Virus record (IMG/VR): IMGVR_UViG_2534681936_000021
Coordinates: 1 to 37,481 of that record
Direction: 5' to 3' (one strand)
Length of the DNA stretch: 37,481 bases
DNA from: a virus
Taxonomy: Duplodnaviria > Heunggongvirae > Uroviricota > Caudoviricetes
Notes under the pieces: generated by a model
What the model saw: only the letters and a program-made list of their open reading frames with translations
Database searches by the model: none
What the model was told of the DNA's origin: nothing
Translations under genes and position numbers: made by a program
Part shown: piece after piece, positions 3,379 through 8,927 of the stretch
Position numbering within the stretch: the first letter of the stretch is position 1
How the letters are laid out: each line of letters opens with the position of its first letter

Positions 3379-3582
3379 ATGGCAATTAAGCATTTTCCTG
3401 TCGTTCGTTTTACCTCCAGAGGGCGTGAATACGAAGTCGACGAACGCCTGATTACCACAATCGACAAACACCGTTCGGAAAAGGATGCACACCACATCTA
3501 CCTCACTGACGGCACTTACTTCTGCGCCACCAACGTGGCGCGGGTGAATCTTATCCGACAGGTACAGGAGCCACGCAGATGA
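3379..3582 (+). CDS. early-region hypothetical protein (67 aa)
   Basis: RBS aaggagg upstream; stop overlaps the next start (ATGA). Confidence 0.45.
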   Translation: MAIKHFPVVRFTSRGREYEVDERLITTIDKHRSEKDAHHIYLTDGTYFCATNVARVNLIRQVQEPRR

Positions 3583-3845
3583 CCATTCTGGACTACATCG
3601 CTACCCATCCGGGTTGTAGCGGCGGAGAAATCGCCGCAGCACTGAATACCCCAACCACAGCCATCAATGCTGAGTTACGCCGACTCTGGCGCGGCGGCTT
3701 AGTCATCAGAACAAACCGCAGCACAGGTGGTCGCGCTCGCAAAGCAGGAGGCCAAGCTTCTTACCACGTAAACCCGATGCCGTTCGGGTGTAGCAATCCA
3801 CTTACTCACATGTTTAACCAGCTACTGAAGGAAACCAGAGCATGA
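3579..3845 (+). CDS. early-region protein, possible winged-helix DNA-binding fold (88 aa)
   Basis: Translationally coupled to both neighbours; the N-terminal 60 aa read as a small helix-turn-helix/winged-helix pattern (inference only). Confidence 0.4.
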   Translation: MTILDYIATHPGCSGGEIAAALNTPTTAINAELRRLWRGGLVIRTNRSTGGRARKAGGQASYHVNPMPFGCSNPLTHMFNQLLKETRA

Positions 3846-4141
3846 GCACCATCAATCACCAGAAGCTACGCGAACTGGCATTTGCCCTGCAACGAATGGC
3901 AACGCCTCAAAAATTACTGGTATTTCGCGCAATGCTCTCGCCGTCTGCTGTGCTGGCACTGCTGGATGAGCTGGAGCACGCCAGAACCACGGCTCCTGCC
4001 ATTCGCCTGACGCTCCATCATGAAATCGCTGATTTCTGCGCGACGTTGAAGGCGCCAGGCGAACCGGAAACACCGGAAGTAATACAGCAAGAGCTGCTGC
4101 AACGCATTGACAAGGTTTTTGATTTTTTTCTGAACCAGTAA
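3842..4141 (+). CDS. early-region hypothetical protein (99 aa)
   Basis: ATGA overlap with the upstream gene. Confidence 0.45.
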   Translation: MSTINHQKLRELAFALQRMATPQKLLVFRAMLSPSAVLALLDELEHARTTAPAIRLTLHHEIADFCATLKAPGEPETPEVIQQELLQRIDKVFDFFLNQ

Positions 4142-4263
4142 GAAACCAGAACATGCACACACAAAAAAACCGCTTGCCATGCCGCAATCAGTCAGGTTAC
4201 ATTTCCGCTGCACCTCACAAAACGGGTGTCGGGTTTCGCAGCCTGCTGACTACACAAGCGCAC

Positions 4264-4284
4264 AACCGCGCCAGCGGTTTTTTT
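4264..4284 (+). terminator. intrinsic terminator-like hairpin (aaccgc-gcca-gcggtt followed by T7)
   Basis: 6-bp GC stem, 4-nt loop and a run of 7 T; lies within the non-coding stretch after the early ORFs. Confidence 0.5.
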
Positions 4285-4463
4285 GTGCGTACTGTATTGC
4301 CACGTTTTTTTCGCGTCAGAATTATGGCGGGGCGTACGGGGCCGACTTCGGTCGGGCCGGGTTCTTGTGTAGCCGGTACTGCGAACCTCGTACGTCTCGC
4401 CACCCACAGTTTCGCAGCTCTGGATGGTGAGTTTTCACAACTTACTACACAAGGGGCCACACC

Positions 4464-4640
4464 ATGGCAAACCGCAGACTTTCCCGCGCATCACGCGTCG
4501 CGCAAATCATGCACATCAATATGCTGCATGAGCGCAGCCACGCACTATCAAACATTTATTCCGCCTCTGTTTTCAGCTATCTGGCGGATGATCTGCGCGA
4601 GCTTCAACAGCTCATCCAGCAGCAAAACAAACTCCATTAA
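4464..4640 (+). CDS. possible 58-aa helical protein (MANRRLSRASRVAQIMHINMLHERSHAL...), below the ORF-track size cutoff
   Basis: ATG preceded by aagggg about 7 nt upstream; translation reads as amphipathic helix. Confidence 0.35.
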   Translation: MANRRLSRASRVAQIMHINMLHERSHALSNIYSASVFSYLADDLRELQQLIQQQNKLH

Positions 4641-4712
4641 TTCCTGTTCCGGGCCTTTCCTGCACCTTGCGGCGGGAGGCCTTCGCACATCTGTAACAAG
4701 AGGATTGCCGCA

Positions 4713-5078
4713 ATGATTCTCGCCAACGACTTTCTTGAATACCTGCTCAACACAGAACGTGATCTTGCCGCTCGCGTGCGTGATCGTTATGACATGTACC
4801 AGAAATCCCTGCCTGTACCGCAGCTCGCTGACGGAAAGATTGTTATTGATGGTCGCTACATGATTGACAGCCACGAGGGAAATTACAGGCTTTACCGCAT
4901 TGAAGGTGGCACCCCGTCCGTTATTGGCATTTACCAGCGCCCATCCTCTGCAATCGTCGATGTGATTGCCGACAGCATCCGCATCACACATCGCCATGCC
5001 GACACAGAAGACACCGTGCTGGAAATTCAGCGGCTGGCTGCCGTCTGCCGCGACACCCTGAATGGCATGACGAAGTAA
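4713..5078 (+). CDS. hypothetical protein preceding replication gene A (121 aa)
   Basis: RBS aagagga upstream; clean ORF ending 6 nt before the gene A start. Confidence 0.55.
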   Translation: MILANDFLEYLLNTERDLAARVRDRYDMYQKSLPVPQLADGKIVIDGRYMIDSHEGNYRLYRIEGGTPSVIGIYQRPSSAIVDVIADSIRITHRHADTEDTVLEIQRLAAVCRDTLNGMTK

Positions 5079-5084
5079 ATCACT

Positions 5085-7943
5085 ATGACGGCAGAGTACA
5101 TCAGGGACTGGCAACAACCGCGCCACGCAGTGGGGCGTGAAGGAACGGGGATCCCCGTTCCTGAATCCGCGCTTTCCTCCTGGCTGGATGCCTACCGGGC
5201 AGAGAACGAGCGCCGCCAGGAAATGGCTGATGCGGCGTTCTCCGCCACGCCGCTGAGCAACCTGATTAATAAAAGCCTGGACGCACAGGAAAAACAGGAC
5301 AAAACCATCACACTGGCAGGAGACGCCAGAAAACAGGCACGCGGCGCGGTGGATGAAGCCATGGCCTCGCTGCGCCTGCTGCCGTCCTATCTGCGCGATC
5401 CGCTTATTCGCCACCTCTCCTTCCTGCGCAAAAAACAGGAAGCCGATCGCCGGAAAGGCAAAAAGAGCTGGCAGGCTGAACGCTACGCGCGCGGAACCCT
5501 GCGCAAAATATTCGAACGTCTGGACCGCACCGACCACCGCTGGCTGACACCGGGTTATCGCTCCCTTGCCGGACGCGAACGCCTGGATGATTTGCTTTAC
5601 CTGCCGCAGCTCAACCAGCACCAGATACAGACGCTGGCCACCATGACGGCGGCGATGTTCAGCAGCACCTTCGAAAAACTCTGCGATGGCTTTGGCGCGA
5701 CCGATGGCGAACTGACCATGGATGTAACGCTGAAGGCGTATCAGATGCTGGCCCGCATGGCGTTACACCTGCACGCCATGCCGCCACATTACGAAGCTCT
5801 GAACAAGAGCGATCCGGATACGGAACTGTTACCGGGCGCAATCCTTCGCCTGACCTGTGCGGAATGGTGGAAACGCAAACTGTGGCTGTTACGTTGCGAG
5901 TGGCGGGAAGAACAACTCCGCGCCGCCTGTCTGGTTTCCAAAAAAACATCGCCCTATCTGAGCCAGGACGCGTTAAGCGAGTTTCGCGCACAGCGCGAGA
6001 AAACACGCGATTTCCTGAAAAGTTTCATGCTGGAAAACGAAGACGGGTTCACGATTGATCTCGAGACAGTGTATTACGCGGGAGTAAGTAACCCGGTTCA
6101 CCGTAAGGCAGAAATGATGGCCACCATGAAGGGGCTGGAACTTCTGGCCGAAGCCCGTGGCGACAAAGCGGTGTTTCTGACCATCACCTGCCCGTCAAAA
6201 TACCACGCCACAACAGAGAACGGTCATCCGAATCCCAAATGGAACGGGGCCACCATGCGCGACTCCAGCGATTACCTGGTTAACACGTTTTTTGCGGCGG
6301 TCCGCAAGAAACTGAACCGCGACGGCCTGCGCTGGTATGGCATCCGCACAGTGGAGCCTCACCATGACGGCACCGTGCACTGGCATATGATGGTCTTTGC
6401 TCATCCGGAAGAAATCGACACCATTGTGTCCCACACCCGCGATATTGCCATTCAGGAAGATCGTCACGAGCTGGGTGATGATATTACCCCACGCTTTAAG
6501 GCGGAGTACGTCGACGGCTCAAAAGGCACGCCAACCAGCTACATCGCCACCTACATCGGAAAGAACCTGGACAGCCGCGCCGTAGATGGCATCGACCCGA
6601 AAACGGGCAAGCCACGCGTTGACCACGAAACCGGAAAATCGATGGCCGAGAGCGTGGAACGCGCCATCGGCTGGGCGCGCCTTCACCGTGTCCGCCAGTT
6701 CCAGTTCTTTGGTATCCCCTCCCGTCAGGTGTGGCGTGAACTCCGCCGCCTTGCCAGCCAGATGGCACGCAACCCGGAAGGCCCGCAACGGCTGAAGGAT
6801 GACGCAATGGATGCGGTACTCGCTGCCGCTGATGCCGGATGTTTTGCCACCTACATAGAGAAACAGGGCGGCGTACTTGTTCCACGCAAAGACTACCTGA
6901 TTCGCACCGCCTACGACCTCGCAGATGAGCTGAACGATTACGGCGAACAGAGCGTACAGATTTACGGGATCTGGTCACCACTCATCGGGGAATCCTCCCG
7001 TGTGTGCACGCATCCGGATAACTGGAAGCTGGTAAGACGCAAACCGGAAGCGGAAGACAGCGCCCGCGAAAATGGTTTTGACCTTCAGGGCGCCCCTGCC
7101 GCCCCTTGGACTCGTGGCAATAACTGTCCCCGTATACAGGAAACGGGCAACAACGGGACAGAACAGCCGGAAGAACGGCCAGCACCGTGGCCGCAGCTTC
7201 CTGACGGCGTTGACGTGAATGAATGGATGCGCTCACTGAAACGGCACGAACACCGGGCGCTGATGCGTTCGCTGCGTGACAAACAGGCAAAAAACAGCAG
7301 TGATGAAATGCAGAACTGGACACAGAGCCGCAAACAGCCACAGCCTTTGCCTGATAACCACGAGTTACTCGCTAAAGAATGGCGGGAGTCTGCTGAATCT
7401 CTCGGCCTGCATATCGGTGAACAGCAGATGCAGCACCTGTTACGGGGCGGCAGTCTGTACGTTGACGGCAGCATCATTGCACCGCAGGGATTTGAAATTG
7501 TACGCAAACCGGATACCCGCCCGGACAGCCGAATCACGCAGCTCTGGCAACGCCTGAGCCGTAATCACGGCGTAAGCAGCACGGAGATCCGCCATAACCC
7601 GGTCGCCAGCTATCTGGAACAGCTGGGGGCATCAGACCCCGAAGCCGCCACACGCCTGGAATCCACACTTCAGCAGGACCAGAACACCATGAAAACCCCC
7701 GTTACCGTGCTTTCTGACATGCTGTGCGCCATCCGTGACGCAGAGCACGCACAGAGAATCAGTGAAACCACTGAACGCGCCCGCCGCAAAGCAGACCTGC
7801 TGCGGGGTAGCCTGACCAGTGGAAACAAAAAACAGACAGAAACGGGACTCACAAATCCCGTAAATGAGCAAAAACGTGCCGCGATATATGAAGCGCGCAC
7901 AAAACAGGCAAAAGCGGGATTTAAAAATCCTGTAACCGATTAA
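5085..7943 (+). CDS. A: replication initiation endonuclease, P2 gpA family (rolling-circle HUH nickase), 952 aa
   Basis: HUH-like motif EPHHDGTVHWHMMVF and tyrosine motif YIATYIGK in the translation; position after the early genes as in P2. Confidence 0.9.
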   Translation: MTAEYIRDWQQPRHAVGREGTGIPVPESALSSWLDAYRAENERRQEMADAAFSATPLSNLINKSLDAQEKQDKTITLAGDARKQARGAVDEAMASLRLLPSYLRDPLIRHLSFLRKKQEADRRKGKKSWQAERYARGTLRKIFERLDRTDHRWLTPGYRSLAGRERLDDLLYLPQLNQHQIQTLATMTAAMFSSTFEKLCDGFGATDGELTMDVTLKAYQMLARMALHLHAMPPHYEALNKSDPDTELLPGAILRLTCAEWWKRKLWLLRCEWREEQLRAACLVSKKTSPYLSQDALSEFRAQREKTRDFLKSFMLENEDGFTIDLETVYYAGVSNPVHRKAEMMATMKGLELLAEARGDKAVFLTITCPSKYHATTENGHPNPKWNGATMRDSSDYLVNTFFAAVRKKLNRDGLRWYGIRTVEPHHDGTVHWHMMVFAHPEEIDTIVSHTRDIAIQEDRHELGDDITPRFKAEYVDGSKGTPTSYIATYIGKNLDSRAVDGIDPKTGKPRVDHETGKSMAESVERAIGWARLHRVRQFQFFGIPSRQVWRELRRLASQMARNPEGPQRLKDDAMDAVLAAADAGCFATYIEKQGGVLVPRKDYLIRTAYDLADELNDYGEQSVQIYGIWSPLIGESSRVCTHPDNWKLVRRKPEAEDSARENGFDLQGAPAAPWTRGNNCPRIQETGNNGTEQPEERPAPWPQLPDGVDVNEWMRSLKRHEHRALMRSLRDKQAKNSSDEMQNWTQSRKQPQPLPDNHELLAKEWRESAESLGLHIGEQQMQHLLRGGSLYVDGSIIAPQGFEIVRKPDTRPDSRITQLWQRLSRNHGVSSTEIRHNPVASYLEQLGASDPEAATRLESTLQQDQNTMKTPVTVLSDMLCAIRDAEHAQRISETTERARRKADLLRGSLTSGNKKQTETGLTNPVNEQKRAAIYEARTKQAKAGFKNPVTD

Positions 7944-7967: not shown

Positions 7968-8927
7968 ATGAAAATTTGTATCGATGACGGCTCCACCAAC
8001 ATCAAGCTGGCATGGACTGAGAACGGCGAACGCCGCAACGCCATCAGCCCAAACAGCTTCAAGTCGGAATGGTCTGCGCCGTTCGGTGGCACGCAGCCCG
8101 CGAACTACATGCTTGATGGCGTGCGCTATGGTTTTGATCCGGTCAGCGATCGCTTTGTCCAGACGACCGACACGCAATACCAGTACAGCGATGTGAATGT
8201 CATTGCTATTCATCACGCGCTGGTCAAATCAGGCATCACACCACAGGAAGTGGATGTGGTTGTCACCCTGCCACTGAGCGAATATTTCGACACAAACGCA
8301 CAGCCGGACATGGTCAACATCAACCGCAAAAAAGCGAACGTCATGCGCCCGGTGGAGTACCAGAACGGCGAAGCATTCACTATCCGTAACGTACGGGTTA
8401 TGCCTGAATCCATTCCGGCTGGCTTTAAAGCACTGGCTGACATGAGTCCGTTTGAATCCCTGCTGATTGTGGATTTGGGCGGAACCACGCTGGATGTGGC
8501 AAAGGTTCAGGGGCAACTGGCAGGTATCAGCCAGGTGTTTTGCGATCCACACGTAGGCGTTTCTCTGATGGCCGATGCCGTACTGTCGGTGATGGCCACT
8601 AACGGTATGCGCACCAGTCACCACATCGCCAATACCATTATCGAACGTCGCCATAATGAAGCCTGGCTGCGCCAGCACATCCACAATGACGCGCATTACG
8701 CCAGCCTGATGGCGGTTATTCGTGAAAAGGAAGAAACACTGAAACAACGCGTGATCCGCGCGCTGGCGGGTTTTTCGGGTTACGGGCGGGTGATGGTTGT
8801 CGGTGGAGGGGCGGAGATTGTGGCACCCGCTATCCGCGAAGCCTGCGGAGTTAATGCGACTTTCATCGCGGACGGGGTGCCACAGTTTGCTCTGGTTAAT
8901 GGGCTGTACGCAATGGACAAGGAGTAA
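7968..8927 (+). CDS. parM: ParM/StbA-family actin-like ATPase
   Basis: N-terminus MKICIDDGSTNIKLAW plus YSDVNVIAIHHAL, VMPESIPAGF, LIVDLGGTTLDV and VMVVGGGAE closely parallel plasmid R1 ParM as recalled. Confidence 0.85.
   Translation: MKICIDDGSTNIKLAWTENGERRNAISPNSFKSEWSAPFGGTQPANYMLDGVRYGFDPVSDRFVQTTDTQYQYSDVNVIAIHHALVKSGITPQEVDVVVTLPLSEYFDTNAQPDMVNINRKKANVMRPVEYQNGEAFTIRNVRVMPESIPAGFKALADMSPFESLLIVDLGGTTLDVAKVQGQLAGISQVFCDPHVGVSLMADAVLSVMATNGMRTSHHIANTIIERRHNEAWLRQHIHNDAHYASLMAVIREKEETLKQRVIRALAGFSGYGRVMVVGGGAEIVAPAIREACGVNATFIADGVPQFALVNGLYAMDKE

Follow-up and report, generated by a model that had tools for sequence, protein, structure and literature searches.

The small RNA (sRNA) IsrK has been equated with the seqA RNA of the satellite phage P4, and the C4 antisense RNA with its CI RNA; the same "IsrK-C4 immunity system" is also present in P1, P7, N15 and some lambdoid prophages (PMC3632133, PMC4825925, PMC10111431). 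In P4, the CI RNA blocks expression of the replication genes via premature termination (PMC4825925, PMC10111431), the immI operon of P1 has an anti-repressor of the main repressor as its output (PMC8198154), and IsrK of the Salmonella prophage Gifsy-1 activates downstream translation in trans through base pairing (PMC4825925). Here we analyzed positions 4142–4463, a region of about 320 base pairs (bp), in the Caudoviricetes record IMGVR_UViG_2534681936_000021 of IMG/VR, whose whole stretch of 37,481 nucleotides (nt) is referred to below as the window. This region, together with the gene that follows it, is very probably an IsrK–C4 antisense-RNA immunity cassette of the type found in P4 (seqA/CI RNA/seqC) and P1 (a1b1/c4/a2b2), carried by a complete P2-like phage. 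It is a further example of a kind of system that has already been described, and adds no new kind. A sequence-only reading of the same DNA had described the region as a GC-rich non-coding element with nested inverted repeats, either a structured RNA or an iteron-like protein-binding region.

Two RNA families and their target site

A covariance-model search, one of the checks proposed with the sequence-only reading, returned two Rfam families on the + strand, both above gathering score and over the full length of their models. Positions 4210–4284 match isrK (RF01394; 61.9 bits, gathering score 50, model positions 1–77 of 77), and positions 4320–4407 match the C4 antisense RNA (RF01695; 83.2 bits, gathering score 45, model positions 1–87 of 87). 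With the a2/b2 site at 4411–4453 behind them, the isrK-like leader and the C4-like RNA stand in the order known from P4. The proposal of a structured RNA was right, yet the region comprises two RNAs and their target site instead of a single RNA. The features of the cassette and of the two genes behind it are listed here with their positions in the window; a and b denote the repeated sites discussed in the next section, and the open reading frame (ORF) that crosses the cassette is called the pass-through ORF.

4153–4716, + strand: pass-through ORF of 187 codons, spanning the promoter, both RNAs, the target site and, in another frame, the epsilon-like gene
4157–4177, + strand: left arm of an inverted repeat, complementary to 4270–4290, where the isrK terminator has its 3' half and U-tract
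4174–4203, + strand: putative sigma-70-like cassette promoter (−35 TTGCCA at 4174–4179, 18-nt spacer, −10 TACATT at 4198–4203)
4210–4284, + strand: IsrK-like (P4 seqA-like) leader sRNA of 75 nt, RF01394 match
4210–4229, + strand: leader hairpin 1
4230–4245, + strand: leader hairpin 2, presenting a1 (UUCGCAG, 4235–4241)
4250–4258, + strand: b1, single-stranded (CUACACAAG)
4264–4279 (stem) with U-run to 4284, + strand: intrinsic terminator, matched in a terminator scan
4320–4407, + strand: C4-like (P4 CI-like) antisense RNA, RF01695 match
4325–4341 and 4386–4402, + strand: closing helix of C4, 17 bp with three G-U pairs
4342–4355, + strand: UUCG hairpin of C4 (CCGAC-UUCG-GUCGG)
4356–4377, + strand: second hairpin of C4, whose 12-nt loop bears b' (CUUGUGUAG, 4364–4372)
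4379–4385, + strand: a', single-stranded CUGCGAA
4411–4456, + strand: mRNA target site, with a2 (UUCGCAG, 4411–4417) and b2 (CUACACAAG, 4445–4453)
4464–4640, + strand: putative controlled gene, 58 amino acids, homologue of P4 epsilon ("derepression protein"; Pfam PF25738)
4713–5078, + strand: next gene, 121 amino acids, PHROG 3237 (function unknown), with ATGA overlap with the pass-through ORF

The minimum-energy fold of the C4 part is that of the Rfam model (−47.7 kcal/mol, z = −4.46; none of 200 shuffles folds as well), and 14 of the 25 pairs that the consensus of 60 variants predicts show compensatory changes. The conserved edges of the family, AUGG at the 5' side and CCACC at the 3' side, are both present in the window. 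The 13-bp stem with an enclosed UUCG hairpin, picked out in the sequence-only reading, forms the core of this RNA, its stem belonging to the 17-bp closing helix. On the leader, Rfam c4-a1b1 (RF03163) missed its threshold (19.9 bits, gathering score 46.7); this match overlaps the first two hairpins and contains a1, and the leader is better described by the isrK model, which additionally covers b1 and the terminator. A match to STnc410 at 4106–4154 (E = 0.39, far below gathering score) was rejected as chance.

The placement of the element between the early ORFs and gene A holds for the order of the genes but not for adjacency, because the genes at 4464–4640 and 4713–5078 intervene before gene A (5085–7943). 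The description as GC-rich turned out to be too strong: the G+C content of the element is 55%, only mildly above the 51.8% of the window, and reaches 65% in the C4 part alone.

Complementary sites that change together

The short repeats noticed earlier are exact: GTTTCGCAGC occurs at 4233–4242 and 4409–4418, and ACTACACAAG at 4249–4258 and 4444–4453, with an inverted copy, CTACACAAG, at 4364–4372. The first motif likewise has an inverted partner, CTGCGAA at 4379–4385, which had been overlooked. These motifs are the specificity elements known from P1 c4. Indeed, a' and b' are exactly complementary, over 7 and 9 nt respectively, to the a and b sites that lie upstream and downstream of C4. Three exact copies of CTACACAAG are present and none elsewhere in the 37.5-kb window; a search for further C4 targets in this phage found no more exact copies of the b site, and matches with one mismatch stayed at chance level. 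The b2 copy overlaps the Shine-Dalgarno sequence AAGGGG (4451–4456) of the gene starting at 4464, and the a2/b2 target is the counterpart of P1 a2/b2 and P4 seqC.

Comparison with phage P88 shows two nearly identical cassettes, except in a1/a'/a2 and b1/b'/b2, all of which differ and all of which remain complementary. We then collected 119 loci by a structure-based pattern scan of viral contigs. They comprise 98 distinct cassettes, whose b' loops fall into 34 different sequences and whose a' elements fall into 19. In these 98 cassettes, the exact complement that a loop finds in cis, upstream and downstream, has a mean length of 7.0–8.4 nt, compared to 4.5–5.1 nt for the loops of other loci. 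The geometry is constant, with a1 about 86 nt, b1 about 71 nt and the U-run of the terminator about 43 nt before C4, and with a2 about 23 nt and b2 about 57 nt past the a' region. The start codon follows b2 by 7–11 nt across 37 loop combinations, and b2 typically ends in GGA or AGA.

Covariation was measured on an alignment of 34 P88-like cassettes, with a mean identity of 91% and 12 loop combinations, in which variation is almost wholly confined to the six a/b blocks. For the pairings of C4 with the leader (a1:a' and b1:b'), 99.8% of the cells are paired and 11 of 16 pairs have changed on both sides; covariation scores 0.665, compared to 0.122 in shuffled alignments, none of 500 reaching the observed value, and slid controls are paired at only 28–54%. 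For the pairings with the target (b':b2 and a':a2), 97.8% of the cells are paired and 10 of 16 pairs have changed on both sides. A comparative alignment for compensatory base changes had been proposed as a further check, and it finds them both inside C4, as given above, and between the a/b sites, which change jointly. In five sequences a pair is kept via G-U, a mismatch at the DNA level, which argues for pairing of the + strand RNA rather than for recognition of the DNA by a protein.

The cognate duplexes in the window have predicted energies of −13.7 and −10.5 kcal/mol. Summed over loops and targets, cognate pairs reach about −24 kcal/mol in the window and about −23 kcal/mol in P88, compared to −13.5 and −17.4 kcal/mol for the cross pairs, suggesting that the window phage and P88 differ in RNA specificity. 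The P88-like cassettes, with 12 loop combinations at three sites each on a near-constant backbone, are a natural compensatory-change series for RNA–RNA recognition.

Among the loci of the scan (L003 to L121), the a and b specificities reassort independently, and all three copies match each time: the b' loop CTTTGGTTG is seen with three different a' elements, and the a' element CTGCGAA with four different b' loops.

Comparison with P4, P1 and Gifsy-1

The immunity region of P4 matches isrK at 60.8 bits and C4, in its CI RNA, at 74.9 bits, and continues with epsilon, small ORFs and the replication gene. The window shares with P4 the two Rfam families and their order, with a1/b1 in a terminated leader and a'/b' in a C4-type RNA, and the complements of a' and b' are directly readable in the P4 sequences. 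It also shares an epsilon homologue downstream and then a replication gene. By its position, the ORF at 4153–4716, which begins 5' of the putative promoter and crosses both RNAs as eta does in P4, may correspond to eta. Nevertheless, P4 is a satellite, whereas the window, with its capsid and tail genes, represents a complete helper-like phage of the P2 type. Behind the target, the window has an epsilon-like gene first, and not Kil, and the pass-through ORF lies in another frame than this gene, whereas eta and kil are in frame with each other. As replication gene the window has P2 gene A instead of the alpha primase of P4, the 121-amino-acid gene is unrelated to P4 ORF151, to which it shows no similarity, and the loop specificities differ. 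In P4 itself, the Kil part (residues 85–132) of the "cI" ORF at 8168–8584 matches the NCBIfam model "host cell division inhibitor Icd-like" at 73.9 bits; P4 and P1 thus appear to have in common, besides the RNA, the first gene behind C4.

P1 and P7 are heteroimmune through specificity variants. The immI operons of these phages resemble the window cassette in that the C4 antisense RNA comes from the same transcript as its target, that two specificity elements occur in three copies each, that the target extends into the ribosome-binding site of the gene that comes next, and that the output is an anti-repressor, in the window a predicted one. Here too, the variants of the specificity elements would imply heteroimmunity. 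The window differs in having no icd, a small epsilon-type protein instead of Ant1/2, and a main repressor of the P2 C type instead of C1, and its a1/b1 leader matches the isrK model and has its own terminator.

The isrK–orf45 (STnc1160)–anrP region of Gifsy-1 resembles the window in its IsrK member, followed in Gifsy-1 by a processed, stable RNA of about 80 nt complementary to IsrK, in an ORF, translated in Gifsy-1, that runs across this RNA and meets the next gene at AUGA, and in an anti-repressor output. Unlike the window phage, Gifsy-1 is a lambdoid prophage, and AnrP is unrelated to epsilon. Moreover, orf45 has 45 codons and is coupled straight to the anti-repressor gene, whereas the ORF of the window has 187 codons, overlaps the anti-repressor gene out of frame and would be coupled to the following gene. 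By blastn, the same cassette is found at about 70% identity before Rha/Ant-type anti-repressor genes in Stx and Salmonella phages. Since it precedes different anti-repressor genes, it is best regarded as a portable regulatory cassette.

The pass-through reading frame

The sequence-only reading had found no credible ORF in the element. This has to be corrected, because the ORF at 4153–4716 covers the entire element and relatives keep its frame open, even if its protein product is probably not what matters. Its ATG lies 11 nt past the stop of the upstream gene and 5' of the cassette promoter, and at its other end TGA and the following start codon overlap as ATGA (4713–4716). From a1 to b2, the frame is free of stops in 32 of 33 P88-like cassettes, compared to 6 and 1 of 33 for the other frames, and, among cassettes of other types than the P88-like one, in 12 of a non-redundant 22, compared to 3 and 2 of 22. 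The upstream ATG is conserved, and the ATGA overlap is found in most of 41 P88-like regions. Because a dinucleotide-shuffle test of ORF length on the single sequence gave a weak result (97 of 5000 shuffles match), we relied on conservation of the frame across the family.

The translation is of low complexity and rich in Cys, Arg and Ser. Pfam Ash (PF10554) matches it at 24.9 bits, under the cut-off of 26, and matches at 59.7 bits the obsolete "cI" ORF of P4, which lies across the CI RNA gene. PHROG families of the "transcriptional regulator" kind match residues 4–104 only, i.e. the cassette part (E = 1e-9 to 1e-15). No NCBIfam model matched the ORF, and BLASTP against the P4 "cI" ORF returned nothing. 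Since the Pfam and PHROG matches are limited to the RNA part, we read the ORF as a pass-through frame whose translation, and not its product, is important.

We propose, by analogy, that this ORF is the counterpart of P4 eta and Gifsy-1 orf45. In P4, the long ORF eta encloses seqA, CI and the constitutive promoter inside it; only transcripts from an upstream promoter are translated in this frame, with coupling to the gene before it, and this translation keeps transcription from terminating (PMC10111431). In Gifsy-1, orf45 is a translated ORF across the processed RNA STnc1160 and is conserved in its nucleotides, not in its amino acids (PMC4825925).

Putative promoter, terminator and inverted repeat

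The putative promoter at 4174–4203 scored 9 of 12 matches in a promoter scan, and both of its hexamers are invariant in 34 of 34 P88-like cassettes. The predicted transcription start, at about 4210, is the first base of the isrK model, and the promoter is the counterpart of P4 PLE and Gifsy-1 PisrK. The terminator is, like the promoter, invariant in 34 relatives.

The 12-bp inverted repeat of A7CCGCT (4163–4174) and AGCGGT7 (4273–4284) described in the sequence-only reading is real and longer than was claimed. It is perfect over 15 bp (4160–4174, CACAAAAAAACCGCT, with 4273–4287), and a repeat search extends it to arms of 21 nt (4157–4177 and 4270–4290) that are 90% complementary. AGCGGT7 is the 3' half of the isrK terminator with its U-tract, and the A7 tract sits just 5' of the −35 hexamer. 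When 4150–4290 is folded, the arms pair with each other (−53.6 kcal/mol, z = −4.2). The left arm is a candidate UP element of the promoter and/or a candidate antiterminator in transcripts that come from upstream. Among 25 distinct terminator contexts examined, the upstream arm occurs only in the P88-like subfamily, where three of four terminator/upstream variants have the full A7 form (11-nt match) and the fourth (L016) has an A5 form (9-nt match). Compensatory variation of this repeat is absent within the P88-like subfamily. The repeat being lineage-specific and free of such variation, covariation neither supports nor refutes the antiterminator role, which is offered here as a hypothesis.

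A second sigma-70-like match at 4297–4325 (TTGCCA, 17-nt spacer, AATTAT) places its −10 over AUUAUGG, a conserved string with which C4 begins on its 5' side and whose AUG (4324–4326), likewise conserved, is in the frame of the pass-through ORF. Its −35 is not conserved in close relatives and its start would fall inside the 5' stem of C4, so this match is probably due to chance.

The epsilon-like gene and the gene behind it

The product of the gene at 4464–4640 matches the Pfam family "Derepression protein" (PF25738, cut-off 27) at 28.3 bits in its form of 58 amino acids, and the form of 76 amino acids common in relatives matches at 32.7 bits; P4 epsilon itself matches at 170 bits over its full length. 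The 76-amino-acid form is 29% identical to P4 epsilon (BLASTP, E = 4e-9). Liu, Renberg and Haggård-Ljungquist reportedly described in 1998 that P4 epsilon derepresses P2 by binding the C repressor. The window encodes a homologue of P2 C (37% identity, E = 1e-22), so that a target is available for the epsilon-like protein. Epsilon-like ORFs of 129 amino acids, extended at their N terminus, are present on more than 1000 contigs and are publicly named "inositol monophosphatase" (the cluster of L002:3165–3395), a name that is almost certainly a propagated misannotation. Their extension amounts to 53 codons (159 nt), which by arithmetic would place the start codon inside the C4 RNA region or shortly before it.

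For the 121-amino-acid gene at 4713–5078, we infer translational coupling to the pass-through ORF and membership of the module.

A model of the switch and its alternatives

What can be read from the sequence are the parts of the cassette and their order, a conserved complementarity that covaries, a b2 site that reaches into the ribosome-binding site, and an output gene homologous to epsilon; the following model borrows its dynamics from the described systems. Transcription from about 4210 would be constitutive, and most transcripts would stop at 4284 as the IsrK-like RNA. Transcripts that read through would be processed, as by RNase P in P1 and P4, into a stable C4-like RNA, which would pair with a2/b2 and block translation of the epsilon-like gene. 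Through polarity, this block would also curb transcription into the 121-amino-acid gene and gene A, which are probably both subject to it when the block is on. The C4-like RNA would act in cis, and in addition in trans on incoming phages of the same a/b specificity, providing RNA immunity. By its a1 and b1 sites, the IsrK-like RNA may compete for the C4 loops and tune or relieve the block, as experiments showed for Gifsy-1 IsrK. Transcripts from the upstream early promoter would escape in the manner of P4 eta, translation of the pass-through ORF overriding both the terminator and the C4 block; pairing of 4160–4174 with the 3' arm of the terminator may perhaps add to this. The epsilon-like protein would then be expected to inactivate a P2 C-type repressor, either that of its own phage or that of a related prophage.

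Several observations weigh against this model, or against its working in full in this phage. The IsrK-like RNA folds unremarkably on its own (z = −0.4), and the direction of the IsrK effect differs in the literature, IsrK being needed for immunity in P4 and activating in Gifsy-1. Unlike in P1 and P4 (Kil/Icd), no ORF of the window matches the NCBIfam Icd-like model, and the polarity step is therefore an extrapolation. The epsilon-like gene of the window lacks 18 codons relative to the common 76-amino-acid form, through a 54-bp in-frame deletion of residues 4–21 that apparently occurred between AACCGCA direct repeats (junction 4464–4476, AACCGCA at 4470–4476). It is also a rare allele, the exact 58-amino-acid sequence being found on 5 contigs and a second 58-amino-acid variant on 23, compared to at least 1000 for the 76-amino-acid form. 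Deletion and rarity together suggest that in this phage the switch may have an impaired output, and the whole cassette could even be a leftover that is intact in sequence yet no longer functional here. We consider the latter unlikely, as the window shows no mismatch in any of the four RNA pairings and has an intact promoter and terminator, as the deletion keeps the frame and leaves 56 residues that are still matched by the family (PF25738; PHROG 3688, E = 1e-32), and as C4 immunity in trans would need no protein.

A different role for the same cassette is possible, if somewhat doubtful, namely P4-style replication immunity. The cassette would then mainly halt transcription from its own constitutive promoter and from incoming homoimmune phages before gene A, with the epsilon-like gene serving, like P4 kil, as a "sensor" ORF for Rho-dependent termination. 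The gene order is indeed P4-like (leader, CI-like RNA, epsilon, small ORF, replication gene), the CI RNA of P4 is known to stop replication-gene expression by premature termination (PMC4825925, PMC10111431), the epsilon-like gene of the window tolerates the 18-codon deletion, and a related prophage without cassette and epsilon has the 121-amino-acid gene and gene A. On the other hand, the breadth of the 76-amino-acid family, with at least 1000 contigs and a match to PF25738, points to selection on the product, and the cassettes of lambdoid and Salmonella phages precede Rha/Ant-type anti-repressors and not replication genes. The two roles are compatible, and either of them, anti-repressor or replication-gene control, may be the main one.

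That the protein of ORF 4153–4716, an "Ash family" protein or "transcriptional regulator", is the functional product and the RNA features are secondary would account for a 187-codon frame that is open and conserved as open, for the weak Ash match, for the PHROG regulator matches at residues 4–104 and for the PGAP label "similar to ash family protein" at this place in a relative. This is highly improbable, because every protein-family match coincides with the RNA cassette and not with the rest of the ORF, and Ash also matches the old "cI" ORF of P4 over the CI RNA, which is now recognized as the immunity factor (PMC4825925, PMC10111431). Selection on a protein cannot explain six short blocks that vary as complementary sets; in addition, the frame overlaps a real gene in another frame, gives a low-complexity Cys/Arg/Ser-rich translation, contains stops in 10 of 22 divergent cassettes and matches no NCBIfam model. 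The iteron- or operator-like DNA bound by a neighbouring early protein, which the sequence-only reading had envisaged, could appeal to the short direct and inverted repeats and to the MarR-like gene just upstream (3579–3845), but we reject it as having next to no probability. The two direct copies and the one inverted copy change their letters jointly between close phages while complementarity holds, the G-U pairs of five sequences would be mismatches in DNA, and the repeats coincide exactly with the places that a1/b1, a'/b' and a2/b2 have in curated RNA families. Moreover, the replication origin of P2 is annotated in its record inside gene A and is not intergenic.

As to its history, we suggest tentatively, and as no better than a speculative possibility, that P2-type helpers of the P88/Xuanwuvirus group captured the immunity/anti-repressor module of P4, their own satellite, and that it serves them as a switch, gated by RNA, when prophages come into conflict. 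The a/b loops occur in at least 12 combinations on a backbone that is otherwise about 91% identical. On this view, these loops would be a two-part immunity barcode: a superinfecting relative with a mismatched barcode would escape the resident C4, make epsilon-like protein and derepress the resident P2-type prophage, whereas one with a matching barcode would be silenced. The same RNA might also hit P4-like satellites that share a loop.

Occurrence and annotation

Of 5426 complete E. coli genomes, 1271 (about 23%) carry the cassette, and E. coli FDAARGOS_946 (NZ_CP065607) has a stretch identical to positions 4142–4700 of the window. Despite its wide presence in E. coli, the cassette is missing or mislabelled in phage and genome records, which give "hypothetical protein", "transcriptional regulator", "ash family" pseudogene or "none". 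Ash (PF10554), several PHROG regulator families and the PGAP "ash family protein" pseudogenes fall on the IsrK–C4 cassette (window 4153–4716; P4 8168–8584; L002 2854–3114), and Ash and several of the PHROG "regulator" families seem to be largely translations of the RNA cassette and its pass-through frame.

In the P88-like prophage of NZ_CP027352.1 (2474–2620), the whole cassette and the epsilon-like gene are absent, and the order is MarR-like gene, "ash family" remnant of about 120 nt, 121-amino-acid gene and gene A. The 121-amino-acid gene thus stays in place without the cassette, and the module is accessory.

The carrier phage

The window is a complete temperate phage of the P2 type, belonging to the P88/Xuanwuvirus group. 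It encodes portal, terminase, scaffold, capsid, baseplate, tail-fibre, tape-measure and sheath proteins of the P2 type, and besides this virion set it has cox, gene A, parM and the genes for an integrase and a P2 C-like repressor. A helper-like phage of the P2 type here carries an RNA immunity module of the P4 type together with an epsilon-type anti-repressor, which bears on the induction of P2-like prophages and on cross-talk among helper phages, satellites and related prophages. Classical P2 itself is not known to be inducible. P88 was recovered following mitomycin C treatment (PMC5285337). SOS control was checked in the window, and no LexA-box-like site was found near the cassette, the nearest weak matches being at 2282 and 4960.

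Positions 3800–5100 are 93–98% identical to P88-like phages, and the MarR-like gene, which encodes a winged-helix protein, lies a short way upstream of the cassette. P88 carries about 1.1 kb of extra genes just 5' of the cassette (P88 3854–5191), for a membrane protein and for a lipoprotein annotated as a serine protease. Compared with window positions 4142–4158, its homology to the window resumes exactly at CACAAAAAAACCGCT, which is the left boundary of the cassette.

Gene A of the window (5085–7943) encodes 952 amino acids, compared to a coding region of 2286 nt, or about 761 amino acids, in P2. Its Pfam GPA domain begins only at residue 179, leaving about 180 N-terminal and about 450 C-terminal residues without family assignment. 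Directly after gene A, positions 7968–8927 hold a full-length gene for a plasmid segregation ATPase of the ParM type (Pfam StbA_N 273.8 bits, ParM_N 225.9 bits), which could indicate an episomal phase or a role in DNA segregation.

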